Shown one piece after another: positions 152-27,367 of a DNA stretch of 27,845 nucleotides. The stretch comes from a virus (Duplodnaviria; Heunggongvirae; Uroviricota; Caudoviricetes). Both the position numbers and the translations under genes were made by a program. Every line of letters starts with the position of its first letter. Within the stretch, counting starts at the first letter, position 1. Below the pieces are notes generated by a model. The model made no database searches and had not been told where the DNA came from. It saw nothing but the letters and a program-made list of their open reading frames with translations. The stretch spans positions 1 through 27,845 of IMG/VR virus record IMGVR_UViG_2802429221_000019, one strand, 5' to 3'.

Positions 152-227
<76 letters not shown>

Positions 228-280
228 GTTTAAAAGACATCGGCTTAAGCGGGTGTCTGGCTGAAAAGCCTGAAGAATTT

Positions 281-354
281 GGCGCGTTAACAAAGCGGTT
301 ATGTAGCGGATTGCAAATCCGTCTAGTCCGGTTCGACTCCGGAACGCGCCTCCA
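281..354 (+). tRNA. cysT: tRNA-Cys (anticodon GCA)
   Basis: 74-nt tRNA: acceptor GGCGCGT/ACGCGCC, anticodon loop TTGCAAA, T-arm GGTTCGACTCC, CCA end. Confidence 0.93.
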
Positions 355-366
355 CTTTTTTCCCGA

Positions 367-453
367 GCCCGGATGGTGGAATCGGTAGACACAAGGGATT
401 TAAAATCCCTCGGCGTTCGCGCTGTGCGGGTTCAAGTCCCGCTCCGGGTACCA
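367..453 (+). tRNA. leuZ: tRNA-Leu (anticodon UAA), class II with long variable arm
   Basis: 87-nt tRNA: acceptor GCCCGGA/TCCGGGT, anticodon stem-loop AGGGA-TTTAAAA-TCCCT, long variable arm, T-arm GGTTCAAGTCC, CCA end. Confidence 0.93.
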
Positions 454-520: not shown

Positions 521-993
521 GTATTTGTATTTTGTTAAATGGCGGTAAAGTGGCGATGGTGTGGCGATATGCAGAAATAATGATAGTACACGTCTGTTTA
601 AACTCTAAGGGTGAAGCAAAACTCTCCTGCAACTCATCTGCATTTCGCATATTGAACTAGGGCCTTGGTTAAACCAAAGTTTTTTCTGGGATCTTCCCAC
701 TCAACTTCATTTTTCCTCCTACCATCCACCAAAAGGTGTCTGCGCTACTCTATCTTTTTTAATCTGACAACATCCTGAGAAAAAGACAAATTCGTTAGAT
801 TTACTGTCTTTCTGCTGCCTCGAATGCTGATGTCTGCAGCACTGATAATAACTCTATCTCTTTGATATAGATCTTTTTTTTGATGAATTGCACGGCATAT
901 TATCGTGATGGCACCTTCTTGTTAAAGGTGTTGTACTCCTCATCTCGATTTTATGATGTGGGCTATGATTGGTTAGTAATAGAGTGTATCGGT

Positions 994-1275
994 ATGCGAT
1001 GTGGTTTATTAATGGCAATCTGCCTTTGTTTGGTATCTTTTAGTGGGTATGCAGCAACAGGAAAGTCAGATGCTCAGATCAAGAAAGAAATAATTAAAGA
1101 ATCCATTGAATCTTATCCAGGCAATTGTGCGTGTCCGTATAATCATGCAAGGAATGGTAGTAGATGTGGTGGACGCAGTGCATATAGCCGTACTGGAGGG
1201 TATGACGTGGTATGTTATGAAAGTGATGTTACCGATGAAATGATCCGGCAATGGAAGCAGGAGAATGCTGAGTAA
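994..1275 (+). CDS. small secreted Cys-rich protein of unknown function (signal peptide MRCGLLMAICLCLVSFSGYA; motif CxCPY...RCGGRSA)
   Basis: ORF-track frame 880..1275; start at 994 preferred because it begins a typical signal peptide, and the 38 residues upstream are non-hydrophobic. Lies in an AT-rich islet. Family not identified with certainty. Confidence 0.5.
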   Translation: MRCGLLMAICLCLVSFSGYAATGKSDAQIKKEIIKESIESYPGNCACPYNHARNGSRCGGRSAYSRTGGYDVVCYESDVTDEMIRQWKQENAE

Positions 1276-2097: not shown

Positions 2098-3207
2098 TCA
2101 CTCTGTTTCCGCTATCCATTCCGGGATTTTTGCCTCAAGCTCAAGCTGCGTGGTAAAGCCGCTGTTATCAATGGTGTGCTCGGCTTTTGCAATAATCCAG
2201 TCCTGATTATCAATCTCGCTTTTAAATCCTGTTACCGTGCCATGCATTTCGGGGTAGAGTTCTGCTCGTCCACGTGCCAGCGTGATGGAGAATGATGCGG
2301 CTCCGCGTTGTAGTTGTTGCCACTTTGCCGCCGCTGCGCGTCTTGCTGCCTGCTCGTTCTGATAAGTCTTGCGTAACACAAACACATTGCCTTCCGCGCC
2401 TTCCATATAATCACCTTCACGGCTGCTGCTTTTCTCTTTTTTCGGTTTTGGCGGTTTGCGGCGTTTCACGCTGACTTTTTTCTTTTTCCCGTAATTAAGA
2501 TCAAGCCAGTAAGCGCGTACCCCCGTATACGCCTCGCGGTCAGCAATGCGGAACTGATGGCGATCGCCGCTGCTGCGGGTGATGGAGAACGATGGCAACG
2601 GCTGGCCCTGTGCGTTCACGCCACCGCCGGGCATGATGAATAACAGATTACCGCTTTTTACCGTGGTGATTGCGCCCAGCATTTCCGCCATGCGCGTAAG
2701 GAAGGACATGTCGCTTTCTTCAGTCTGGTCGGCGTGGTCGATTTCGATATCCATCAGCATTTCGCTGATTTGCGGTTTCAGACCGTACCGATGAGCGATG
2801 GCGGATACCACGCGCTCAACGGTCACATCATGCCAGGACACTTCACGTTTAACGTTAAATTCATCCCGAAAATCTGCGCTTCTGGCTGAAACAGTCAGCC
2901 TGTCCGGCGGTCCTTCGTGTGCGATTTCATCAACAATGTAAGACCCTTTTTCTGTCAGCGGTTCGCCTTTCCAGCCAATGAGAACCGTCAGGCACGCGCC
3001 CCGTGGTGGAAGCTGCAACTGACCATCCGCATCATCCAGCGTAATGGTGAGCTGGTCTGCCTCAAATCCCCGGTTGTCGGTCAGCGACAGGCTCATCAGG
3101 CGCTCTGCCACGCCGGACAGCGTTTTACCCTCCGCGAGAATATCAAAATCCGGCATTTTCACGGGGTCTGTGCTCTGACTGAGCAATTGCATGGTGGTAT
3201 CGGTCAT
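2098..3207 (-). CDS. D: tail protein D (late control D family)
   Basis: ORF-track frame 2098..3339; start chosen at ATG 3207 (MTDTTMQLL...) with SD GGGAGGGAG upstream. P2 gpD-like in size and sequence; contains a Lys-rich insertion KKKKVSVKRRKPPKPKKEK. Confidence 0.85.
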   Translation of the reverse strand: MTDTTMQLLSQSTDPVKMPDFDILAEGKTLSGVAERLMSLSLTDNRGFEADQLTITLDDADGQLQLPPRGACLTVLIGWKGEPLTEKGSYIVDEIAHEGPPDRLTVSARSADFRDEFNVKREVSWHDVTVERVVSAIAHRYGLKPQISEMLMDIEIDHADQTEESDMSFLTRMAEMLGAITTVKSGNLLFIMPGGGVNAQGQPLPSFSITRSSGDRHQFRIADREAYTGVRAYWLDLNYGKKKKVSVKRRKPPKPKKEKSSSREGDYMEGAEGNVFVLRKTYQNEQAARRAAAAKWQQLQRGAASFSITLARGRAELYPEMHGTVTGFKSEIDNQDWIIAKAEHTIDNSGFTTQLELEAKIPEWIAETE

Positions 3208-4549: not shown

Positions 4550-5061
4550 TGGCTGTGCCAAAACATCTTCGCTTTTTTACGCTGTTTGTGGATGGTGAAA
4601 ACGAAGTGGGTAAGGTGACGTCCGTCACTCTGCCTAAGCTGACGCGCAAAACCGACAGCTACCGGGGTGGTGGCATGATGGGGGCGGTAAGTATTGATCT
4701 CGGTCTGGACGACTCCGCGCTTGATGCGAGCTTTGTCATGGGGGGCGCAGTTCGTGAGCTGTTCCTTAAGTATGGCGGCACGATTGACGGCACGCTGCTG
4801 CGTTTTGCGGGTGAATACTACACCGATGCAGAAAGCGACCTGTATGAAGTCGAAATGCGCGGACGTGTGACGGAAATTGATATGGGGGAAGCCAAACAGG
4901 GCGAAGCCACATCACACACTTACGCCATTAAAAACACCTACTACAAGCTGAGTGTTAACGATCGCCCGTTGTGGGAGATTGACCTGCTGAACTTCATTTA
5001 CCGGAAGGACGGCAAGGACATTGCGCCCGATCGCATCCGTTCCGCGCTTGGGCTTGGCTGA
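4549..5061 (+). CDS. FII: tail tube protein
   Basis: 170 aa; ATG overlaps the FI stop (TGATG); size and position as for P2 gpFII. Confidence 0.88.
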   Translation: MAVPKHLRFFTLFVDGENEVGKVTSVTLPKLTRKTDSYRGGGMMGAVSIDLGLDDSALDASFVMGGAVRELFLKYGGTIDGTLLRFAGEYYTDAESDLYEVEMRGRVTEIDMGEAKQGEATSHTYAIKNTYYKLSVNDRPLWEIDLLNFIYRKDGKDIAPDRIRSALGLG

Positions 5062-5116
5062 TAAGTAATATGCAGGCGGCGCAGTGCGTCGCCTCTGACT
5101 GAAAAGGAGACCACTG

Positions 5117-5491
5117 ATGAAAAACATCGATACTGAAACCCAGAATAACACCGTGGCGGATGATGTGACGGCAGATGAGGATATGGCTGTCGAACGTGGT
5201 GTAAAACTTTCCCGGCCAATTGAGCGTGGCGGCGAAAAAATCACGTATGTGGAGATCACCGGGGCTATTGAGCAGGCTGGATCCCTGCGAGGTTTGTCGC
5301 TGTCTGATGTGCTGAATCTGAAAGCGGATACCATGTTCACGCTGTTGCCTCGCGTGACTTCGCCACGACTGGATGAAGTGATGATTAAAAAAATGTCGTC
5401 ACGCGATTTTATTCAGTTGTGCGCTGTGGCTGTAAATTTTATGAGCGAGCCAGACTCTGGCGCGAAGAGCGTGCAGGAGACGGCAGCGTAA
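5117..5491 (+). CDS. E: tail assembly chaperone E
   Basis: 124 aa between tail tube and tape-measure genes; SD AAGGAG 7 nt upstream; overlapping -1 frame ORF (E') continues into the T start region. Confidence 0.7.
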   Translation: MKNIDTETQNNTVADDVTADEDMAVERGVKLSRPIERGGEKITYVEITGAIEQAGSLRGLSLSDVLNLKADTMFTLLPRVTSPRLDEVMIKKMSSRDFIQLCAVAVNFMSEPDSGAKSVQETAA

Positions 5492-5655
5492 TCACCCTGG
5501 TGTGCTTTGAGCACATCGAAGATCTGGTGGCGGATATTGCCGCCATTTTTAACTGGTCGCCCGCCGAAATCTTCATGATGACGCCCGGCGAAGTGGTTAG
5601 CTGGCGTGAGCGGGCGGCACTTCGCAGCGGGAATGCAGACAATGAAGACTCTTGA
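5117..5655 (+). CDS. E+E' tail chaperone produced by programmed -1 frameshift (predicted)
   Basis: -1 frame is open from 5389 to 5655; slippery heptamer A AAT TTT at 5434-5440 in the E frame; analogous to P2 E/E+E' and lambda G/GT. Confidence 0.45.
5434..5440 (+). promoter_or_regulatory. candidate -1 ribosomal frameshift heptamer AAATTTT
   Basis: X XXY YYZ pattern in the zero frame of E inside the E/E' overlap; an alternative A7 run at 5387-5393 is less favourably placed. Confidence 0.4.
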
Positions 5656-8449
5656 TATCCGGGTCGCTTTCAGCGCCGTTGACAGGCTGACCCGGCCTGC
5701 CGAAAACGCCCGCCGCCTGATGGGGCAGTTTGGTGACTCCATCCAGCGAACGCAGGGGGCGATCAAAAATCTCGAGCGTCAGGCGCGTTCATTTGAGCGC
5801 GCCCGTGACGCTGTCAGTAAAGCGGATGCGGGCATCGTAAAAGCACGACGCCAGCTTAACGCCCTTAATCAGTTACAACGCACGGGTACAGTGCTCAGCG
5901 AAAAACAGCAAAAGCTGATGCAGCAGTTAAGCACCCGGCTTGAACGCCTGAATGAATCGCGCACACGGGAAATTCAGAAAATGCGGGAACTTGGCGGAGA
6001 GCTGAAACGCCACGGCATTTCCCTGACAGGCAGCGATAACACCATCCAGCAGGCCATCAGACGCACCGAACAGTACAACAACCAGCTTGAACGCGAACGG
6101 CAGGCGCTTGCGCGTGTAACGCGGGCGCGTGAGCGGTATTCGCGCGCGCAGGAAACAGCGGGAAAACTGAAAACAGGTGGTGCGCTGGCAATTGGTGCGG
6201 CAGCGGCGGGCGGCTATGCTGCCGGGCGTTTTTTGCAGCCTGCGATCGGGTTCGGGAAAGAGATGTCCCGCGTTCAGGCACTGACGCGAATCGACCAGAA
6301 CAGCCCGCAGTTTAAGGTGCTGCGTGAGCAGGCGTTAAAACTTGGCTCTGAAACGCAGTTCACCGCAGGCGATGCCGCCAGTGGACAGGCATTTCTTGCA
6401 ATGGCTGGCTTCACTCCGCAGGCCATTCAGGCTGCGCTTCCCGGCGTACTGAGCATGGCAACGGCTGGCGGTATGGATCTCGGCGAGACGGCAGATATTG
6501 GCTCAAATATCCTGACGCAGTTCGGCCTTTCTGCTGACCAGATGGACCGGGTCGGTGACACACTCACCGCAGCGTTTACCCGTACCAACACTGACCTTCG
6601 CGCACTGGGCGAAACCATGAAATATGCAGGTCCGGTGGCGGGTAAGCTGGGAATATCGCTGGAGCAGGCCGCAGCGATGGCGGGCGTACTGGCGAATATG
6701 GGCATCAGAGGGAGTGATGCCGGGACGGCAATGCGTGCCAGCCTGGCTCGTCTGGCATCACCGCCAAAGGCAGCGGCAGAAGCGCTGAAAGAGCTGGGCG
6801 TGTCCGTCTCGGATGCCGGGGGCAAAATGCGCCCGATGGAAGATCTGCTGGCTGACCTTTATAAAGCTACCCGCAAATACGGGGAAGTTGACCGGGTATC
6901 CTTCTTTAAGGACATCGCCGGGGAAGAGGCTTTCACATCGTTTATGGCACTCGTTGATGCGGCGGGTGACGGTTCCTTACCCAAACTGAGAAAAGAACTT
7001 GAGGGCGCACGCGGTGAGGCTGAACGCACGGCAAAGGTTATGGCCGACAACCTTGATGGCGACCTGAAAAATCTCGACAGCGCATGGGAAGGTCTTCGTA
7101 TTCGCATCAGTGATCTGGTTGACGGTTCGCTGCGTTCTGTCACGCAGTGGCTAACGCGGGTGGTCTCAAAAGTGACGGCACTGGCGCAGGCCCATCCTGT
7201 ACTGACGCGCCAGCTACTGATTGCAGGCGGTGCGCTGCTGGCAGTGACTGCAACCGTAGGCTCGTTGTCGCTTGCTCTTGGTGTGCTTGCTGGCCCACTG
7301 GCAAAACTGCGTCTTGGTTTTTCCCTCCTGACCGGATCAATGAATGCTGTCAGGCTCCTGCCTGCACTATGGGGAATGGTGACGGGTTCCGTTTCGTTAC
7401 TGGGGGGCGCTATCGGGGCGCTGTTCAGCCCGGTCGGATTGATTGCTGCTGCGTTTGTGGCTGCGGCAGTTCTCATCTGGAAATACTGGGAACCCATCAA
7501 GGCGTTTTATGCCGGGGTGTTCAGCGGGATTATGGAGCGGCTGGCCCCGTTACGCGAAACCTTTGAACGGTTTGGTCCTGTTTTTGACGCAATCGGAAGC
7601 GGGATCAGCCAGGTGTTTAACTGGTTTAAATCGCTGTTGTCACCGATGGAGTCCAGCAAGGAAACGCTGGATAAATGCACAAGTGCTGGCGAGGTATTCG
7701 GTAACGTTCTTGGCGGTGCGTTACAGCTTGTCCTGACGCCTGCAAAAATGCTGCTGGATACGTTGGCGTGGATACTTGAAAAACTCGGTGTTCTTCCGGA
7801 TGAAGCGGAAAGGGCGCGCAAGAAAATCGAAGACGCGCAGCGTGCGGCCATTCTTCAGGACAAGGTTGCTCTGTTTCAGGGAGACATTGCGAAAATCAAT
7901 CCGCCGAAGCCTGTGGAAAATGGCAATGGCACCGGAGGTGATAACCCCAAAGACAACAAACCGCTCACAGACAGCAATACCGGTACGCTACGCAGACTCA
8001 GCAAAATTGCTGATAACACAGGTAAGCTGGTTGATGAGACGAAAAAACGCATTGGCCCCGGCGATATTGTCTTTAAGAACCTGCCCCGCGCACTTGCCGT
8101 TCGTGGGGAGTGGCAGGAGCGGAAGATTGCGCAGGTCAGTAAGCCTGCCCCCGCAATTAATATCACACCTGTGGTTCCGGCTCCGCTGCCTCCGGCGCTG
8201 GTCCCTGTTGTTGCGGCCAGCTCCCGCCCGGTGGCAGAGGCCATACGATCGCCAGTGGCATCAGTTCCTGCAACTTCCCGTAACCGGGAGCCTGTTGCCT
8301 CCGGATTTGGCGGTGAAATTCATGTTCATCTGCATAACGTTGTTACGCAGAATCCCCGCGAACTGGCGAAACTGGTCGGTGAAATGGTCAGGGCAGAAAT
8401 GGAACGGCGCGCCCGTGCCGGGCGTGGCAGTTTTTACGATAAAGATTGA
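5606..8449 (+). CDS. T: tail tape measure protein
   Basis: 947-aa ORF (GTG at 5606; possible ATG starts at 5633 or 5642); coiled-coil N-terminus, Gly/Ala-rich hydrophobic core, position between chaperone and U. Confidence 0.85.
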   Translation: MSGRHFAAGMQTMKTLDIRVAFSAVDRLTRPAENARRLMGQFGDSIQRTQGAIKNLERQARSFERARDAVSKADAGIVKARRQLNALNQLQRTGTVLSEKQQKLMQQLSTRLERLNESRTREIQKMRELGGELKRHGISLTGSDNTIQQAIRRTEQYNNQLERERQALARVTRARERYSRAQETAGKLKTGGALAIGAAAAGGYAAGRFLQPAIGFGKEMSRVQALTRIDQNSPQFKVLREQALKLGSETQFTAGDAASGQAFLAMAGFTPQAIQAALPGVLSMATAGGMDLGETADIGSNILTQFGLSADQMDRVGDTLTAAFTRTNTDLRALGETMKYAGPVAGKLGISLEQAAAMAGVLANMGIRGSDAGTAMRASLARLASPPKAAAEALKELGVSVSDAGGKMRPMEDLLADLYKATRKYGEVDRVSFFKDIAGEEAFTSFMALVDAAGDGSLPKLRKELEGARGEAERTAKVMADNLDGDLKNLDSAWEGLRIRISDLVDGSLRSVTQWLTRVVSKVTALAQAHPVLTRQLLIAGGALLAVTATVGSLSLALGVLAGPLAKLRLGFSLLTGSMNAVRLLPALWGMVTGSVSLLGGAIGALFSPVGLIAAAFVAAAVLIWKYWEPIKAFYAGVFSGIMERLAPLRETFERFGPVFDAIGSGISQVFNWFKSLLSPMESSKETLDKCTSAGEVFGNVLGGALQLVLTPAKMLLDTLAWILEKLGVLPDEAERARKKIEDAQRAAILQDKVALFQGDIAKINPPKPVENGNGTGGDNPKDNKPLTDSNTGTLRRLSKIADNTGKLVDETKKRIGPGDIVFKNLPRALAVRGEWQERKIAQVSKPAPAINITPVVPAPLPPALVPVVAASSRPVAEAIRSPVASVPATSRNREPVASGFGGEIHVHLHNVVTQNPRELAKLVGEMVRAEMERRARAGRGSFYDKD

Positions 8450-20616: not shown

Positions 20617-22368
20617 ATGATTCAGGACGCTTTTGTGCGCCAGCGTGCGCGACAACTTTACTGGCAGGGTTATCCGCCCGCTGAAATATCACGTCTGATG
20701 GGAATAAACCCGAACACGATTTATGCGTGGAAAAAACGCGACCAGTGGGATGAAACGCCACCCGTGCAGCGTGTCACGCAGTCCATCGATGCGCGCCTCA
20801 TCCAGCTTACTGAAAAACAGAATAAAACAGGCGGTGACTTTAAGGAAATAGACCTGCTGACCCGGCAGCTTAAAAAACTGCATGATGGCCAGCCGGATGC
20901 GACGGCCACAGGAAAGAAAGGCCGGGCGAAAAAGCTTAAAAATCATTTCACGCCGGAACAGATTGCCGCACTGCGGGAAAAAATCATCAGCAGGCTGGAG
21001 TGGCATCAGCGGGGCTGGTTTGACTCCCTGACCCTTTGCAGGGAAGCCGGGATACGTAACAGGATGATCCTGAAATCCCGACAGATTGGGGCGACCTGGT
21101 ATTTTGCACAGGAAGCACTGCTGATGGCGCTGCGTGACGATGTGGCGCAACCTTACCAGCGTAACCAGATTTTTTTGTCTGCGTCGCGTCGTCAGGCGTT
21201 CCAGTTTAAAAGCATTATTCAGAAGGCTGCATCTGAAGTTGATGTGGAGCTGAAAGGGGGCGATAAAATCATCCTCTCCAACGGCGCAGAACTGCATTTT
21301 CTCGGTACTTCTGCTGCGACGGCACAGTCCTACACAGGCAATTTTTATTTTGATGAATTTTTCTGGGTCAGTCGCTTTGCTGAACTGCGCAAGGTGGCTG
21401 GCGCTATGGCAACCCTCAGCGGGCTGCGACGCACCTACTTCTCCACGCCATCAACCGAAACGCACGAGGCATACGTCTACTGGAACGGCGACCGCTGGAA
21501 CGAGAAAAAGGCCGCGCATAAACGCCAGCGTTTTTCTGTGGACTGGAAAACGCTGCATAACGGGCTTATCTGCCCCGACCGGACGTGGCGGCAAATTGTC
21601 ACGCTGGAAGATGTGGTTAATCACGGCTGGAAACACACCGATATTGATGAAATTCGTGATGAAAACACCGAAGACGAGTTCCGCAATCTCTATATGTGTG
21701 AGTTTGTCCGCGAAGGGGAATCGGCATTTAACCTGAATATCCTGATTGGCTGCGGCGTTGACGGATACGACGACTGGAAAGACTGGAAACCTTTTGCTCC
21801 CCGCCCGATGGGGAATCGTCCGGTATGGATTGGGTATGACGCAAACGGCAGCAGTGGAAACGGCGACAGTGGCGCGGTGTCCGTGGTGGTTCCTCCGGCT
21901 GTTCCTGGTGGCCGTTTTCGAACGGTGGAGACGCGACGCGTTCAGGGGCTGGAGTTTGAAGAACAGGCCAGAGTCATTGAAGAGTTCACGTGTCGCTACA
22001 ACGTGGAACACATCGGCATTGATGTGACGGGCGGGAACGGGGAGGCTGTTTATCAGATAGTGAAACGGTTTTTCCCTGCCGCTATTCCGTACACCTTCAC
22101 GCTGTCATCAAAACGGTCGCTGGTACTGAAAATGCTGCAAATAATGCGTGCCGGGCGGTGGGAATACGATCGCGCCGAACGCGAGCTGGTCGCGGCCTTT
22201 AACGCCGTGCGTAAGGTGAAAACACCGGGCGGCTTTATCACTTACGAAACGGACCGCGCGAGGGGGATCAGCCACGGCGACCTTGCGTGGGCAACCATGC
22301 TTGCTGTCATTAACGAACCAATTGGCGGCGAAGGAGAAAACGAGCGTTTCACGGTTATGGAGTTCTGA
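20617..22368 (+). CDS. P: terminase large (ATPase) subunit
   Basis: 583 aa; SD GGGGGAG upstream; divergent from O as in P2. Confidence 0.9.
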   Translation: MIQDAFVRQRARQLYWQGYPPAEISRLMGINPNTIYAWKKRDQWDETPPVQRVTQSIDARLIQLTEKQNKTGGDFKEIDLLTRQLKKLHDGQPDATATGKKGRAKKLKNHFTPEQIAALREKIISRLEWHQRGWFDSLTLCREAGIRNRMILKSRQIGATWYFAQEALLMALRDDVAQPYQRNQIFLSASRRQAFQFKSIIQKAASEVDVELKGGDKIILSNGAELHFLGTSAATAQSYTGNFYFDEFFWVSRFAELRKVAGAMATLSGLRRTYFSTPSTETHEAYVYWNGDRWNEKKAAHKRQRFSVDWKTLHNGLICPDRTWRQIVTLEDVVNHGWKHTDIDEIRDENTEDEFRNLYMCEFVREGESAFNLNILIGCGVDGYDDWKDWKPFAPRPMGNRPVWIGYDANGSSGNGDSGAVSVVVPPAVPGGRFRTVETRRVQGLEFEEQARVIEEFTCRYNVEHIGIDVTGGNGEAVYQIVKRFFPAAIPYTFTLSSKRSLVLKMLQIMRAGRWEYDRAERELVAAFNAVRKVKTPGGFITYETDRARGISHGDLAWATMLAVINEPIGGEGENERFTVMEF

Positions 22369-23414
22369 TGAGCAGAAAAAATAAAAAAGTGCGCATGAGT
22401 TCACGCATTGATCTCGCTGATGCGCTCAGGAAAGAATCGTCGCTCAGTGCATTCACATTTGATGGTCCTTACCGCCTGACCGGGCATGACCTGCTGGACA
22501 ATATGTACTGTGCTGATAACGGGCGATGGTATGAAACCCCGGTGGACTGGTACGGTCTGGCAAGAGCTGCCCGGCAAACGTCCTGGCATCAGTCTGCGCT
22601 TTACTTTAAGCGTAATGTATTGCTCGGCTGCTATATTCCGCATCCGCTGCTTTCCCGGCAGGATTTCTCGGCGCTGGCGCTGGACTGGTTTGTGTTCGGT
22701 AACGCATTCCTTGAGCTTCGAAGCAATATGCTCGGCGAACCGCTTAAATTACGGCACGCCCTGGCGAAATACATGCGACGCGGAAGCGATCTTGAATCAT
22801 GGTGGTATGTGCAGGATGGCAAGGACGCGTTTCAGTTTCGCCCTGGCAAAGTGTGCCACCTGATGAACCCGGATATTAACCAGGAAATCTACGGCATGCC
22901 GGAATATCTTGGCGCATTACTCTCGGCCAGCCTGTCTCATTCGGCGGACATGTTCAGAAAACTGTACTACGACAATGGATCCCACGCCGGGTGCATCATC
23001 TACATCGGTGCAGCGCAGGTAAACCGCGAAAGCATGGACTCCCTGAAGGAAACGCTACAGGGTGCGCGTGGTGGTGGTGCATTTAAAAACGTGCTCATTC
23101 ACGCGCCAAACGGGGGCAAAGAAGGTGTGCAAATTTTGCCGTTCCAGCAGATCACCGCAAAGGATGAGTTCATGAATGTTAAGGCGGCATCCCGTGATGA
23201 TGTGCTGGCTGCGCACCGCGTTCCGCCGCAACTGATGGGGGCGATGCCGGGCGAAAAAAGTGCGTTTGGTGATGTGGAGAAGGCAGCGCGGGTTTACGCA
23301 ATTAACGAGCTGATGCCCGTCATGGAGGCCATGAAGCACATCAATGACTGGCTTGGCGAAGAGGTGATCCGTTTTAATTCTTATGCTCTTCTTGATGAAA
23401 AAACAGCCCCGTGA
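22368..23414 (+). CDS. Q: portal protein
   Basis: 348 aa; ATG overlaps P stop (TGATG); P2 gpQ-like size and position. Confidence 0.9.
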   Translation: MSRKNKKVRMSSRIDLADALRKESSLSAFTFDGPYRLTGHDLLDNMYCADNGRWYETPVDWYGLARAARQTSWHQSALYFKRNVLLGCYIPHPLLSRQDFSALALDWFVFGNAFLELRSNMLGEPLKLRHALAKYMRRGSDLESWWYVQDGKDAFQFRPGKVCHLMNPDINQEIYGMPEYLGALLSASLSHSADMFRKLYYDNGSHAGCIIYIGAAQVNRESMDSLKETLQGARGGGAFKNVLIHAPNGGKEGVQILPFQQITAKDEFMNVKAASRDDVLAAHRVPPQLMGAMPGEKSAFGDVEKAARVYAINELMPVMEAMKHINDWLGEEVIRFNSYALLDEKTAP

Positions 23415-23430
23415 TGGGGCTGTCCTTTTT
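23403..23430. terminator. bidirectional intrinsic terminator between Q and the convergent 174-aa gene
   Basis: stem ACAGCCCC / GGGGCTGT with 5-nt loop, overlapping the Q stop, followed by CCTTTTT; the complementary strand has a T-run on the other side. Confidence 0.65.
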
Positions 23431-23953
23431 ACCAGAGTTGAACCATTTTCTGTGTGCCGTCAGGCTTGAGATTATCAATTTCAGAGAGAACGTAATATTG
23501 AATGGCTTCACAGACGGTGGTGTATGGTGAATTACCTTCTTTAAGTGGCACGATATTATTATTAACGCGAACCTGTATTTCATCGTTATACATTGCGATC
23601 GAAAGAGGAGTATGCACGAAGGCGACTTCGCCAGGTGTGTCGTCAACCACTGTCTCAATGCTGAAAATCAGTTTTCGCTCATCATTGCCGCCCCTTGCTT
23701 TGGGGGTAGCGGCAGGAATCTGAGATAAAGGCATTCTGCGAAACCCTTCAGCCGTTTCCAGTCCGCATGAAACGTAATGCTGGCGATTACCGTCGCTATC
23801 AGTCCATGTCTGTGATGGCAGCTCCAGAGAGATTTCATAAGCATCAACAATTCCCTGGGCAATGCGTACAAGCGGGGTCAGGTCTTCATTGCGGCGAAAA
23901 CTCTCCTTTACCTGATCTCGTTTTTCTCGTAACTGCTTGTAATTAATGACCAT
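23429..23953 (-). CDS. hypothetical protein, 174 aa, no recognised domain
   Basis: ORF-track frame 23429..23992; start chosen at ATG 23953 (MVINYKQLREKR...) with SD GGAGG 7 nt upstream; ends at the bidirectional terminator; GC content looks lower than the phage core. Confidence 0.5.
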   Translation of the reverse strand: MVINYKQLREKRDQVKESFRRNEDLTPLVRIAQGIVDAYEISLELPSQTWTDSDGNRQHYVSCGLETAEGFRRMPLSQIPAATPKARGGNDERKLIFSIETVVDDTPGEVAFVHTPLSIAMYNDEIQVRVNNNIVPLKEGNSPYTTVCEAIQYYVLSEIDNLKPDGTQKMVQLW

Positions 23954-24358
23954 AAGACAGCCTCCATTGATTTCTTTGCTCGTATTTTGCACTTATGAAG
24001 TGTGGTCGGCAAGGTGCCGCATCACTGACGCGCTTCGCTTGTCTGCTGCTTCGCCGGGGCATAAAAAATTTATGCCCCGACTCTCCAGCTCCCGTATCAA
24101 TCAGATAATTTCACGACGTCTTCCAACTTATCGCCATCATCGACGGCCAGACTCTTACGCAATCCCATCGAGCTGATAGCATGTTCTCGCCGCCTCAGTG
24201 CGATTTTGACGGCCTTACCTTTCACCCCATCAAATCAGAACCCCTTACGTATTTTTCACGCTCAGCGTGAGCGATACAGCCATTCTGTTGTGTCGCTGCG
24301 ACATCGTTCAGGGAATGCTATTTACCCCCTGAAACGCGGGCTGTTCCCCCGTCACCTG

Positions 24359-24382: not shown

Positions 24383-24450
24383 GTGCACGCACGGATCCTT
24401 GACGGATCCAGCCGCCATGCGGGCCGGAAGGGCAAAAAGTCGTTCAAAAA

Positions 24451-24480
24451 AATTGTGCAAATTTGTGCACTATTGTGCAA
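24451..24480. repeat. three tandem 10-bp repeats (ATTGTGCAAA / TTTGTGCACT / ATTGTGCAAA)
   Basis: TTGTGCA core at 24453, 24463 and 24473, exactly one helical turn apart, at the boundary of the AT-rich island. Confidence 0.6.
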
Positions 24481-24718
24481 ACCGAACGGAGTGCTTATTT
24501 ATAGAAAAATTGAGCCTATGTATACGACGTTGCTTATAAATACATCCCTGACTGTTATGTGAAAATATGCAAAGAAAATTACATGCTATGGAGATGAGAG
24601 TTATAACGACCTTTTCTACTTATTTGTAAAAGAGGTCGTTATGTAAAAGTTAAATTATTTTTTACTCTTGATATGTGTAAAAAATATAGCTTTGATGTTT
24701 ATATCCTATTAGAATACA

Positions 24719-26416
24719 TTATTTATCCTCTTTAATGATTTTGTTATAGTCAAAATCCCAAATTTTTCTGTCAATGCCGTTTGTTGGTGTAACCCGGTAG
24801 AATAAGGATCGTAATCCATTGTAAAAATACTGGAGAGATTTCTGATTTTCTGGTTTGTCTAACCAGTTTCTTGTAATCATTCTAAAGAATTCAATATGCT
24901 GATTGAATATTTTCTTATTTAATTTTCTTCTTAAACCGGATGTAGACTCATGGTTGTCTTTTCTTTTCTGAATTTCAGTTTCAATTGATTGTAATTGAGG
25001 ACGTATCTTGAGTAAGTATAACTCTTTCGAAAAACCATTGTTAATTATATCCTGATTTTCCCAGAAGGAAGAGTCGTCGGTATTATAAAGGTGCTCACAA
25101 TGCTCAAATATCAATTGTTCTGGAGCTTTTTCACCCGGCAGTGATATAATTCCTCTCTGATCCTCAGGGCTGTGATCTCCATCAAGAATACAAATTGATT
25201 TTAACGAGGTTTCCTTAAGATGAGAATCATTAAAAATAGTTTTTAAATTGTCTGCACCAATGAAACAATCAATTAAGTGAAATGAATTACTAACTATAGC
25301 AAAATTTGGATATTTGCTTATCCAATAACCAAGTATTTCATTAAATAAAAAGCGAGCTTCTTCATCTTCCGTGAAAACTGGTATCTTGTTCCTTGTGTAT
25401 ATCTCATCCTTTGTTTGTGTTTTCAGATACATTGTTATTTTTAATATATCAGGATTATCCAAAAGCAGAGCCTTTGTAATATTGTTAATTAGATAGGCAA
25501 CATGATATTTTTTATGAAAAGCATATTCTAGCAATGTCAGACTGTGCGTTGTGAAAAATACTTGAATCTTATAATCTTTTGCGTATTGATAAATTTTATC
25601 TAATAATCTTATCTGTAAAGAAGGATGTAAAGTGGCATCAAATTCATCTATTAACAGAATGCTTTCTTTTTGATCAGTGGATTGAATAAGTGATTCAAAA
25701 TAATACCTAAGGCTAACTAATGCCTTGATTATAACGAATATATTGTCTTCCCCGGATGATATGGTATTAGAATCAATTGCTGGGTTATCGGTATCAAATA
25801 ATGGGCCAGCTTTAAAATCTCCGATATTGTTTGATTCTATATTTATAATATTAATGCCCAAAAGTTCATTATATATTTTCGATATATAACCAACATACTC
25901 TTCTGGTAGGTTTAACGGAATTTTTGTAAGGGCGTCGTCTTTAGTTTCACCAATTGGGAATAGTCGCGATAATCCAAGATATAAAACTGGTTTAGCTGGA
26001 AGTGATTGTTTTTCTTTTCCGCGTGGGTATACTGGTTTGATAGCATACCGTTGCGCTTCGTCTGGATTTTTTGAGTTGTGCTTTCTGAAGTCTAGTGTGC
26101 TATGATCCAAATAGTTAATAGAAAATAACACACCTTTTGTTCCCTCTGCCGGATCGGTGTAATTTTTTGATTCCCTAACAATTGCTTCCATTTTGGGGTT
26201 GGCTATTTTGTTTATAGATTTTATAACTCTAACACAATTACTATTTGAATAATTTTGTGATCGAGATGGTGGCATTTGGAAACCATTGCTAATTAAATGA
26301 AGCAATGTTGTCTTACATGTCCCATTGGTTCCTGATATTATATTGATGTCTTCATTGAATGAGAAGTCAATATCTATCAGTTTCTTAAATTTTTTAAAAC
26401 TAATTTCTTTAATCAT
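24719..26416 (-). CDS. OLD-family-like ABC ATPase with C-terminal Toprim-like nuclease domain
   Basis: 565 aa; Walker A GTNGTCKTT (aa 29-37), signature-like ISSGE (aa ~219-223), Walker B ILLIDE (aa 253-258), H-loop FFTTHS (aa ~287-292); C-terminal PVFTEDEE (Glu ~350) and ILDGDHS (DxD 412-414) fit a Toprim fold; SD AAGGA 8 nt upstream; very AT-rich. Confidence 0.7.
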   Translation of the reverse strand: MIKEISFKKFKKLIDIDFSFNEDINIISGTNGTCKTTLLHLISNGFQMPPSRSQNYSNSNCVRVIKSINKIANPKMEAIVRESKNYTDPAEGTKGVLFSINYLDHSTLDFRKHNSKNPDEAQRYAIKPVYPRGKEKQSLPAKPVLYLGLSRLFPIGETKDDALTKIPLNLPEEYVGYISKIYNELLGINIINIESNNIGDFKAGPLFDTDNPAIDSNTISSGEDNIFVIIKALVSLRYYFESLIQSTDQKESILLIDEFDATLHPSLQIRLLDKIYQYAKDYKIQVFFTTHSLTLLEYAFHKKYHVAYLINNITKALLLDNPDILKITMYLKTQTKDEIYTRNKIPVFTEDEEARFLFNEILGYWISKYPNFAIVSNSFHLIDCFIGADNLKTIFNDSHLKETSLKSICILDGDHSPEDQRGIISLPGEKAPEQLIFEHCEHLYNTDDSSFWENQDIINNGFSKELYLLKIRPQLQSIETEIQKRKDNHESTSGLRRKLNKKIFNQHIEFFRMITRNWLDKPENQKSLQYFYNGLRSLFYRVTPTNGIDRKIWDFDYNKIIKEDK

Positions 26417-26433
26417 CTATATCATCCTTAAAT

Positions 26434-27279
26434 TTAAATGTCAGGGATTTTTATACCATGATTATAAATGATAATTTCTAGACCTTTTTTCTTATCTTGT
26501 GCAGTATAATTAAGCGTATAATCAGTCATATTGAATTCATGATATATGCTTTTTATTTCAGGCACATTGTCATAAGACACAACCCAAGGTAGTTGAATTT
26601 CCCGTAGTGTATTAGCGATTTTTACATGATCATCATGTTTATAAAAATTTCTATATAACTCTGCTCCTTTAACATAATAAGGTGGATCAAGATATATTAG
26701 ACTATTTTGGGGTAGCAATGCTTTTTGGTGTAGCAGAAAATCTACAGCATCAAAATTCGATACGTAAATTTTCTCCTTATATGCCCCAATTAGTTCAATC
26801 CTTTTAATTAACTCTTTTTTGTTGAATCGTGCATCTAACTTCCATGGTCCTTTTTGTTCTTTCCCTCCAATAACGCCAGCCTTAAGTATTCCTGAACGGT
26901 TTGTTCTATTTAAAAAGAAAGTAGATAATGCGACTTCAAGCATACTATATTTATCATTGTTTAGGAGTATCTCCTTTTGAGTATGCCAATTTTCAATAGT
27001 CACAGGAACTTCATCAATCATTTCACATAACAGATCGTTATGATTAACCACTGCAAACCAAAAAGAATAAAGGGCAGGATCAATATCATTTATGAAGATA
27101 TTTTCAACAAGACCGTTAAGGAGCAAACCTAATGCAACACCGGCTCCACCTGCATAAGGTTCAGCATAACATCCACCAATGAGATCATTGTTGCGGAGTA
27201 TTTGTTCAATATGTGGCAAGAATTTTGCCTTACCTCCCGGATAACGAAGAGGGGTTCTAAAATGAGAAGGCTTTGTCAT
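26434..27279 (-). CDS. Dam-family (D12 class) N6-adenine DNA methyltransferase
   Basis: 281 aa; motifs YPGGK (aa 13-17), EPYAGGAGV (aa 40-48, SAM-binding FxGxG type), DPPY (aa 198-201); 17-nt gap to the downstream OLD-like gene. Confidence 0.85.
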   Translation of the reverse strand: MTKPSHFRTPLRYPGGKAKFLPHIEQILRNNDLIGGCYAEPYAGGAGVALGLLLNGLVENIFINDIDPALYSFWFAVVNHNDLLCEMIDEVPVTIENWHTQKEILLNNDKYSMLEVALSTFFLNRTNRSGILKAGVIGGKEQKGPWKLDARFNKKELIKRIELIGAYKEKIYVSNFDAVDFLLHQKALLPQNSLIYLDPPYYVKGAELYRNFYKHDDHVKIANTLREIQLPWVVSYDNVPEIKSIYHEFNMTDYTLNYTAQDKKKGLEIIIYNHGIKIPDI

Positions 27280-27367
27280 CCACGATTTTCTCAGTAAAAA
27301 ATAAACATAATCTTAACATGGCACTTGAGTTTTCCCGATAAAAAACATCGTCGCCGTCCATAGATAT

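Follow-up and report, generated by a model that had tools for sequence, protein, structure and literature searches.

Two kinds of prokaryotic antiviral systems bear on the locus considered here. The first is PD-lambda-5 of ECOR7, a validated two-gene system listed as 'ParB/HEPN, methyltransferase', which gives broad protection (Vassallo et al., 2022, PMC9519451). The second comprises the ABC ATPase-Toprim proteins. The described classes of the OLD family differ in their partners: P2 Old (class 1) has none, Gabija (class 2) has a UvrD-like helicase, retron Eco8 (class 3) has a reverse transcriptase and a non-coding RNA, and PARIS (class 4) is split into AriA and AriB (PMC12796447, PMC12392090, PMC10568477). 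HEC-04/IbfA is a defence protein of the ABC ATPase-TOPRIM type (Payne et al., 2024, bioRxiv 10.1101/2024.01.29.577857; PMC12111858), and in HEC-04 mutations of the Walker A and of the E/D/D residues abolish defence (Payne et al., 2024, bioRxiv 10.1101/2024.01.29.577857). Here we compare these systems with a methylase gene (M) and an ATPase gene (T) that lie next to each other in a 27,845-nt stretch of tailed virus DNA (IMG/VR record IMGVR_UViG_2802429221_000019, positions 1 to 27,845; hereafter the window). We propose, with a probability of roughly 50 to 55%, that the pair is a methylation-coupled defence module of two genes and forms part of the cargo of the P2 hotspot, in which M would mark self DNA and T would be an effector kept harmless by M or by its mark. 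On the comparative data, a logic like that of restriction-modification (R-M) systems is the most parsimonious reading.

The pair and its immediate signals, all on the minus strand, are the following.

26434..27279, minus: M, methylase gene, intact open reading frame (ORF) of 281 amino acids (aa)
24719..26416, minus: T, ATPase gene, intact ORF of 565 aa
26417..26433, minus: M-T intergenic spacer of 17 nt, ATTTAAGGATGATATAG, read from the sequence
26429-26425, minus: Shine-Dalgarno sequence AAGGA for the T gene, 8 nt before its ATG, read from the sequence

An earlier note on this DNA, made from the letters alone, had described two co-oriented genes with a 17-nt gap and a Shine-Dalgarno sequence for the second one, lying in an AT-rich island, and the ORF calls and the sequence agree with it on each point. 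The GC content is 0.339 in M and 0.317 in T compared to 0.537 across the remaining window; it starts to fall at about 24450-24500 and recovers at about 27550. The Dam-like D12 motifs that the note had read in the first gene were also recovered, namely EPYAGGAG as motif I and, at residue 198, DPPY as motif IV, and M matches Pfam PF02086 (MethyltransfD12) over residues 13-253 (1.3e-20). Its best PADLOC model is PD-Lambda-5_B (PDLC04018), matched in full length over residues 6-280 with 403.9 bits (E 8.7e-122), followed by MTase_II (PDLC03358), a model of Type II methylases derived from REBASE, at 358 bits. M shares 53% identity with the methylase of the E. coli PD-lambda-5 locus L003 and 59-60% with the PD-lambda-5 methylases of Pseudomonas and metagenomes. 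Judged by these matches, M is a D12-class N6-adenine DNA methyltransferase of the PD-Lambda-5_B family. The best-conserved block of the family, FFLNRTNRSGI..GGVIGG, is located between motifs I and IV. D12 enzymes contact DNA in the region between these motifs, and the position of the block therefore suggests that one specificity is conserved across the M family.

The association of the two genes extends over a wide range of prokaryotes. Full-length relatives of T (45-77% identity) were found in Enterobacterales, Firmicutes and many metagenomes, and T homologues also occur in gut Firmicutes, Haemophilus, Neisseria, Streptococcus and Staphylococcus. In each of the first contexts retrieved (Desulfosporosinus, Sporomusa and one metagenome) a D12 methylase gene is directly downstream. 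A scan of species-representative genomes with T gave 80 loci, from Firmicutes, Proteobacteria, Actinobacteria, Spirochaetes, Deferribacteres, Planctomycetes, Kiritimatiellia, Tenericutes and one archaeon; eight of them end at a contig edge, leaving 72 readable on both sides, in which the neighbour was identified by tblastn. In 70 of the 72 (97%) T adjoins a gene of the M family whose product is 35-58% identical to M: 58 of these genes lie downstream on the same strand, usually at a distance of 15-100 nt, seven lie upstream on that strand, which is the arrangement in the window, and five are on the opposite strand. A methylase is adjacent even where T is only remotely similar (24-37% identity), as in prophages of Streptococcus, a P2-like phage of Vibrio and a plasmid of Bacillus. 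In addition to that, the pairwise divergence of T is correlated with that of M (Pearson r=0.64, Mantel p=0.001, 67 pairs). The survey of co-occurrence recommended in the earlier note thus shows the two genes together across many phyla, and because the adjacency is nearly constant and the divergence correlated, the pairing is not a matter of chance. These data support M and T being a functionally coupled unit.

The clade of the window itself includes the copies of Klebsiella, Salmonella, Pectobacterium and Morganella, which have M followed by T at a spacing of 12-18 nt, a T identity of 71-77% and no third gene. Their surroundings are diverse and include integrase islands beside smpB, plain chromosomal sites, and positions beside a ScoMcrA-type HNH gene or an insertion sequence. 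Occurring without the PD-lambda-5 A component (A) in these four genera, the two-gene form is, by its distribution, autonomous. The Klebsiella and Salmonella islands (L181 and L184) also carry at 2289-3002 (+), between integrase and methylase, a 237-aa ORF that is absent from the window and gave no Pfam match.

The methylase links the pair to PD-lambda-5. A distant-DNA search with the M gene revealed divergent methylase copies in other E. coli strains. In two of these, KSC207 and NCTC9008, the slot between the gene for the replication endonuclease gpA and the portal gene is occupied by a 501-aa protein and the methylase, and their 2,460 bp equal the published length of the PD-lambda-5 locus. 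The 501-aa protein reaches 557 bits on PD-Lambda-5_A, and the methylase 404 bits (404.1) on PD-Lambda-5_B. M scores like a genuine B component, since its 403.9 bits are next to the 404.1 bits of the latter. T is another matter: BLASTP found no similarity between T and the A protein of L003, no PD-Lambda-5_A model is among the best 25 PADLOC matches of T, and no A component is present beside M, where T is the only neighbour and the spacer to gpA (185 nt) is too short for a further gene and holds no A remnant. As T is unrelated to PD-Lambda-5_A, the two genes that PADLOC requires for PD-lambda-5 are not both present. The earlier note had not recognised the pairing as a named system. This holds for the pair, which matches no two-gene system in PADLOC-DB v2.0.0, and fails for M itself, a PD-Lambda-5_B protein at 404 bits.

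Across genomes the methylase family is nearly always accompanied by A, by T or by both. In the E. coli island of KSC64 the gene order is reversed, with a T-type ATPase (26% identical) paired with a methylase of the family. Four T loci carry a PD-Lambda-5_A homologue between T and M (up to 893 bits), and of the 70 T loci at least 13 contain A. The loci of Pantoea spp. and one metagenome-assembled genome, nearest to the clade of the window (T 58-71% identical), are arranged A-M-T with a full-length A homologue. About three quarters of the T loci have M and no A, which makes T plus M without A the commonest arrangement. Seeding a metagenome scan with the methylase yielded 80 loci, 66 of them evaluable for the partner: A was found in 42, a T-type ATPase in 14, both in nine and neither in one. 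An orphan methylase, which the earlier note had named among the findings that would undo its proposal, is thus a single case among 66 as far as co-conservation is concerned. In the methylase tree the partner types are clustered and have switched repeatedly (25 Fitch changes against approximately 62 with shuffled labels), and in a comparison of consensus sequences no methylase position separates the A-linked from the T-linked copies. The comparisons shown here indicate that A and T are interchangeable around M, and since M family members adjoin A, T or both, the window locus is best described as a sister architecture of PD-lambda-5 and not as an unrelated novelty.

Metagenomic PD-lambda-5 loci with A and B (L012-L014) display a further arrangement at 4890-8173 (-), namely a convergent T-type ATPase gene (519 aa; 52% identical to the ATPase of Vibrio phage ValB1MD-2) followed by a gene for a 567-aa protein; the latter has no Pfam match and could be a fourth conserved partner. 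We also considered whether the phrase 'compacted RM+Abi', used by Vassallo et al. for PD-lambda-5, refers to an ATPase, and rejected this, as it most likely means the fusion of ParB (DNase) and HEPN (RNase) in A. PD-lambda-5 was cloned in a strain deleted for an mrr-containing region (PMC9519451); this choice of host can be read as indirect evidence pointing to modification of host DNA by a methylase of the M family.

The genomic position of the pair is that of known defence cargo. In E. coli AR_0013 a 99.8% identical pair, annotated as 'DNA adenine methylase' and 'AAA family ATPase', lies between the 'phage portal protein' and 'replication endonuclease' genes of a P2-family prophage, and in P2 itself the equivalent portal/gpA interval holds tin and old. 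The interval is a known anti-phage defence hotspot (PMC9519451, PMC9122126). The placement of the locus in the old/tin slot with its variable cargo, as given in the earlier note, is confirmed by the AR_0013 annotation and the P2 gene order. Both ORFs are intact in all 15 of the 5,426 complete E. coli genomes that contain the pair (98-99.8% identical). No near-identical DNA was found in deposited phage genomes.

T can be divided into three parts.

25517..26416, minus: N-terminal ABC-type ATPase head with a family-specific insert, about aa 1-300 (Pfam, alignment, Foldseek)
25082..25399, minus: putative Toprim-like core, about aa 340-445, with E350/D351/E353 and D412-G-D414 (AlphaFold2 model, invariant residues, HEC-04 match)
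24722..25081, minus: C-terminal all-helical domain, aa 446-565 (AlphaFold2 helices 449-564, model confidence score pLDDT above 90)

The head matches Pfam AAA_15 (2.1e-12), AAA_21 (1.5e-10) and SMC_N, and its Walker A motif is GTNGTCKT including K35. In an alignment of 39 sequences the residues G29/N31/G32/C34/K35, the signature S220-G222-E223-D224-N225, Walker B D257-E258 and H-loop H291 are invariant, as are the ATPase motifs in 32 relatives at 20-25% identity. The full-length AlphaFold2 model (pLDDT 80) retrieved PtuA, GajA, the OLD effector of retron Eco8, Ts OLD and Rad50/SMC heads by Foldseek (E 1e-9 to 1e-7), and the alignments to the OLD-type proteins cover the whole length. The assignment of this part as an ABC-type ATPase is secure. 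The PADLOC matches of T are weak and partial even at their best (HEC-04 at 58.6 bits, PtuA, ATPase-Toprim_I-B, AriA and GajA), NCBIfam has no named family for it, and in PHROGs it belongs in full length to phrog_3940 of unknown function (1e-135). T is a remote relative of HEC-04/IbfA and further OLD-like nucleases.

For the C-terminal part the evidence is structural. The AlphaFold2 model of residues 303-565 (pLDDT 85) has strands at 345-349, 379-382, 408-411 and 423-425, with the invariant E350 after the first and the invariant D412-x-D414 after the third, which is the arrangement of Toprim domains. The motifs E, ED..A, DxD and LPG..PE are invariant in T homologues down to 20-25% identity. The only PADLOC model matched by the isolated domain is HEC-04 (3.7e-07, residues 343-445), and the best Foldseek matches of its model are the same OLD-type proteins, with non-significant values (E above 0.4). 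A profile search with the domain delineated a compact family of 336 clusters at 50% identity, and among the best 150 matches listed (E 1e-12 or better) there is no bridge to annotated Toprim families. On structure, topology and the invariant E/DxD residues, and not on Pfam, we regard the core as quite probably a divergent Toprim nuclease. The helical tail has the conserved residues F451, W452, G494, R497, K501, F504 and W518 and gave no family match.

The proposed mode of action can be outlined as follows. M and T would be co-transcribed from a promoter of the module itself. M would be made constitutively and would place N6-methyladenine (m6A) on a conserved target site of host and prophage DNA. 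T would dimerise via its ABC heads upon binding ATP and detect unmethylated sites on the DNA of an incoming phage, by itself or with M as a specificity subunit, in the way that Mod serves Res, and the Toprim site (E350, D412, D414) would then nick or cleave the unmarked DNA. Protection of the host by methylation, cleavage of DNA by T and discrimination of the methylation state by T are all three inferred. M would be the antidote to T and presumably also to A. If M were the recognition subunit of T, the exchange of unrelated effectors around an unchanged methylase would be explained. That M almost never occurs without A or T is as expected for an antidote to a nuclease, and the occurrence of the experimentally validated PD-lambda-5 in the same P2 slot of other E. 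coli strains also speaks in favour of this reading.

Several observations weigh against it. The earlier note had read ABC ATPase and Toprim-like motifs in T and called it OLD-like. The ATPase motifs, K35 and the AAA_15/AAA_21 matches stand, as does MethyltransfD12 in M, and D412-G-D414 is in place; Toprim is the less certain part, being probable from structure and motif. The same profile searches found no Pfam Toprim or DUF4435 in the full T, in its C-terminal domain alone or in 32 divergent relatives, NCBIfam gave no Toprim match, the C-terminal alignment, searched as a profile against PDB, gave noise only, and hhalign of the C-terminal profile against P2 Old was negative. The likeness to OLD holds as an architecture and does not go beyond it, since BLASTP aligns T with P2 Old over just 63 residues around Walker B (E 0.011). 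Moreover, no domain for reading m6A or a DNA sequence was recognised in T. The characterised OLD-family systems (P2 Old, Gabija, retron Eco8 and PARIS) and HEC-04/IbfA are described as trigger-sensing and/or abortive rather than as restriction enzymes sensitive to methylation. In the three-gene loci T could be an accessory to a restriction system made of A and M. Finally, the two exceptions among the 72 readable T loci, from Rhizobium sp. (L063 3971-5737) and Pseudorhizobium pelagicum (L064 4001-5695), have no family methylase within 4 kb, and their T homologues (about 40% identity) have kept all catalytic motifs. An adjacent M is therefore not needed in every case to keep T from being lethal. 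Both lie in defence islands, next to a HerA-like ATPase and a protein of approximately 500 aa, with an AbiTii-like gene in L063, and they may represent a methylase-independent offshoot of the family.

These two loci fit a nuclease that is latent by default, as in a guard-type abortive infection system. In such a system M would keep T latent, by contact or by its activity, and T would be freed when a phage factor disturbs M and would then destroy DNA or tRNA. We consider this, the main alternative, unlikely, yet worth serious attention. The triggers would be anti-restriction or anti-methylation factors such as a DNA mimic, a S-adenosylmethionine hydrolase or a methylase inhibitor, with PrrC guarding EcoprrI and PARIS sensing Ocr as parallels. 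Characterised OLD-family and ABC-Toprim systems depend on triggers or abort the infection: PARIS reacts to Ocr by cleaving tRNA, Old reacts to inhibitors of RecBCD and retron Eco8 to SSB, and HEC-04 becomes toxic when induced. In addition, the loci with A, M and T resemble a restriction system provided with a back-up effector. However, the three quarters of T loci with M and without A are difficult to reconcile with guarding, because a guarded methylase would give no defence alone; the near absence of M without A or T is what an antidote predicts, and no sensor domain was recognised.

Two independent cargo genes, i.e., an orphan phage methylase (for anti-restriction or epigenetic purposes) beside a stand-alone abortive gene of the OLD/HEC-04 type, are strongly disfavoured and in our view very improbable. 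Orphan Dam-like methylases are frequent in phages, HEC-04/IbfA and class 1 OLD proteins act as single genes, and the 'orphan MTase' models of PADLOC do score M, weakly (96 bits). Chance neighbours would not be expected to keep together across phyla in both gene orders at 12-100 nt, to diverge in a correlated manner, to leave one partnerless methylase locus in 66 and to move as a unit among unrelated contexts.

It might also be that the pair is what is left of a three-gene system, PD-lambda-5 plus ATPase, which has lost A and has no or residual function in the window. The nearest relatives outside the E. coli/Klebsiella/Salmonella group, those with the A-M-T order and a full-length A, give this idea some footing. 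We nevertheless find it hardly credible, given that 15 E. coli genomes have intact copies of both ORFs, that the A-less pair and its promoter-proximal sequence are conserved in four other genera and several contexts, that T plus M without A is the commonest arrangement and that the gpA-M spacer is devoid of any trace of A. A non-defence role in prophage DNA metabolism (replication, repair or epigenetic control by an ATP-dependent Toprim enzyme and a methylase), for which the archaeal OLD-family protein Cran1, acting in the cell cycle and reported not to be antiviral, would be a precedent, deserves very little credence for a locus that is sporadic in E. coli, is found in prophages, integrative islands and defence islands, where it occupies cargo slots that are AT-rich and variable, and replaces known defence genes at the same position.

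Two further features flank the methylation-coupled pair.

27310..27318, minus: candidate promoter of the module with extended -10 TGTTAAGAT, 30 nt before the M ATG (consensus-level inference)
24603..24642, minus: hairpin about 77 nt downstream of the T stop, inverted repeat ATAACGACCT/AGGTCGTTAT, 10-bp stem, RNAfold -18.7 kcal/mol

Upstream of M, conservation with the copies of Klebsiella, Salmonella, Pectobacterium and Morganella is confined to the last approximately 45 nt ahead of the ATG. This stretch includes a sequence resembling an extended -10 (TGnTAAnAT), which in these four genera reads TGGTAAAAT or TGTTAAGAT, and the candidate at 27310..27318 is absent from the output of a generic promoter scan. 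The gpA-M spacer also contains a perfect extended -10, TGATATAAT, at 27421-27413 (-), and a palindrome, TTGCATAACTATGCAA, at 27383-27368 (-), with perfect 7+7 arms (TTGCATA-AC-TATGCAA). Neither is counted as a part of the module, because they are not conserved in its other genomic contexts; they may be elements of the P2 backbone or of the junction, possibly a read-in promoter and an operator. The hairpin is not a canonical intrinsic terminator since no T-run follows it, and it could be a transcript end, a stabiliser or a recombination junction of the cargo.

A 187-aa ORF at 23429-23992 (-), between the portal gene and T, was considered as a third component and rejected, because it belongs to a backbone segment found whatever the cargo and is absent from AR_0013 despite the same M and T. 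It is assigned to phrog_5091 (8e-66), a family of unknown function, and neither Pfam nor PADLOC gave a match. The segment that holds it (1.06 kb, 94-96% identity) is common to approximately 400 E. coli P2-like prophages, and about 750 others, as well as AR_0013, are without its ORF-bearing half; the ORF may be a second small variable gene near cos. The portal gene is an intact 348-aa ORF in the window (22368-23414) and an annotated pseudogene with an internal stop in AR_0013 (L001 6382-7428), and of the two prophages that of the window may for this reason be the more functional one. The left end of the window carries a cluster of tRNA-Gly(GCC), tRNA-Cys(GCA) and tRNA-Leu(TAA) at 152-453 (+). 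It is followed at 880-1275 (+) by a 131-aa ORF in a stretch with a GC content of 0.39, assigned to phrog_27544 with a weak match to a 'membrane associated protein' moron and lying just before ogr (1795-2055, -). This end is probably the prophage end with a moron beside the attachment site.

No description of the M-T pair was found in the searchable literature; a prior mention in Krishnan et al. (2020) is possible and is the main caveat on its novelty. A methylase-linked class of OLD-like nucleases is absent from the OLD classifications, which cover classes 1-5 and clades U1-U11, and from the papers on HEC, on the P2/P4 hotspot and on the screen of Vassallo et al., as well as from two comparative papers of the Krishnan laboratory. 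No paper mentioning the RefSeq accessions of the pair was found. Defence inventories are expected to under-count it, because rules of the PADLOC type would flag the methylase only. How OLD-type ATPase-Toprim nucleases avoid damaging their own cell is an active question, and if the proposal is true, epigenetic self-marking would be a second route to self-protection for OLD-like nucleases, and Toprim with an ABC motor would be a new nuclease chemistry for R-M. One methylase family with two unrelated effectors, used singly or jointly, would represent natural effector swapping around a conserved self-marking module, a picture that also offers a rationale for the role of the methylase in PD-lambda-5. 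The E. coli prophage copy makes the module directly testable in a standard host. It is conceivable, at somewhat less than even odds, that M-T is an unrecognised class of ATP-dependent restriction enzyme, in which an OLD-like ABC-Toprim nuclease relies on a small D12 methylase for immunity and specificity and this methylase is a hub that takes ParB/HEPN, ABC-Toprim or both; it would then be the first methylation-coupled OLD-like class.

PD-lambda-5 remains the system with most in common with the pair, sharing the methylase family, the two-gene size and the P2 gpA/portal slot; the partner of its methylase, however, is the ParB/HEPN protein A of about 500 aa, and here it is a 565-aa ABC ATPase with a probable Toprim domain. 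With HEC-04/IbfA the likeness concerns T as a single polypeptide in which an ABC ATPase is fused to a Toprim nuclease, a putative one in T, and the Walker A lysine and E/D/D triad of T correspond to the essential residues of HEC-04. The match to the HEC-04 model (58.6 bits, E 1e-16) is limited to residues 249-444 of T on positions 230-408 of the 494 of the model. Furthermore, HEC-04/IbfA genes stand alone, embedded in Hma systems or on IncI plasmids, whereas T is paired with a methylase in 97% of its loci. The OLD family has the same order of ABC ATPase and Toprim domains, the latter being putative in T, with the Foldseek matches of T being full-length to the Eco8 effector, GajA and Ts OLD, and P2 old occupies the very slot of T. 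Yet the conserved neighbour of T is a D12 methylase in place of a helicase, reverse transcriptase or split AriB, so T fits no described class. As to the single classes, the AriA and AriAB models of PARIS reach only the ATPase segments of T (53-54 bits) and PF14491 misses T and 32 divergent relatives, while GajA models match only the Walker B region and the island has no helicase gene of the Gabija kind.

The classical R-M systems offer analogies of logic. From Type II, whose endonucleases cleave without ATP, M has the MTase_II match mentioned above, but T has an intact ATPase and no restriction endonuclease model is among its best PADLOC matches. Type III systems consist of the Mod methylase and Res, a superfamily 2 helicase with a PD-(D/E)xK nuclease. 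They too are two-gene operons of a methylase and an NTP-dependent nuclease, which in the M-T pair possibly relies on the methylase for its targets, and this is analogy without homology, T being an ABC ATPase with a putative Toprim domain and M a small D12 enzyme of the alpha class. PrrC is an ABC-type ATPase with a HEPN anticodon nuclease, embedded in the complete Type I system EcoprrI. It exemplifies an ABC-type ATPase-nuclease that is genetically tied to a DNA modification system and serves as the model for the guard-type alternative, whereas the two-gene M-T form has no separate restriction subunit.

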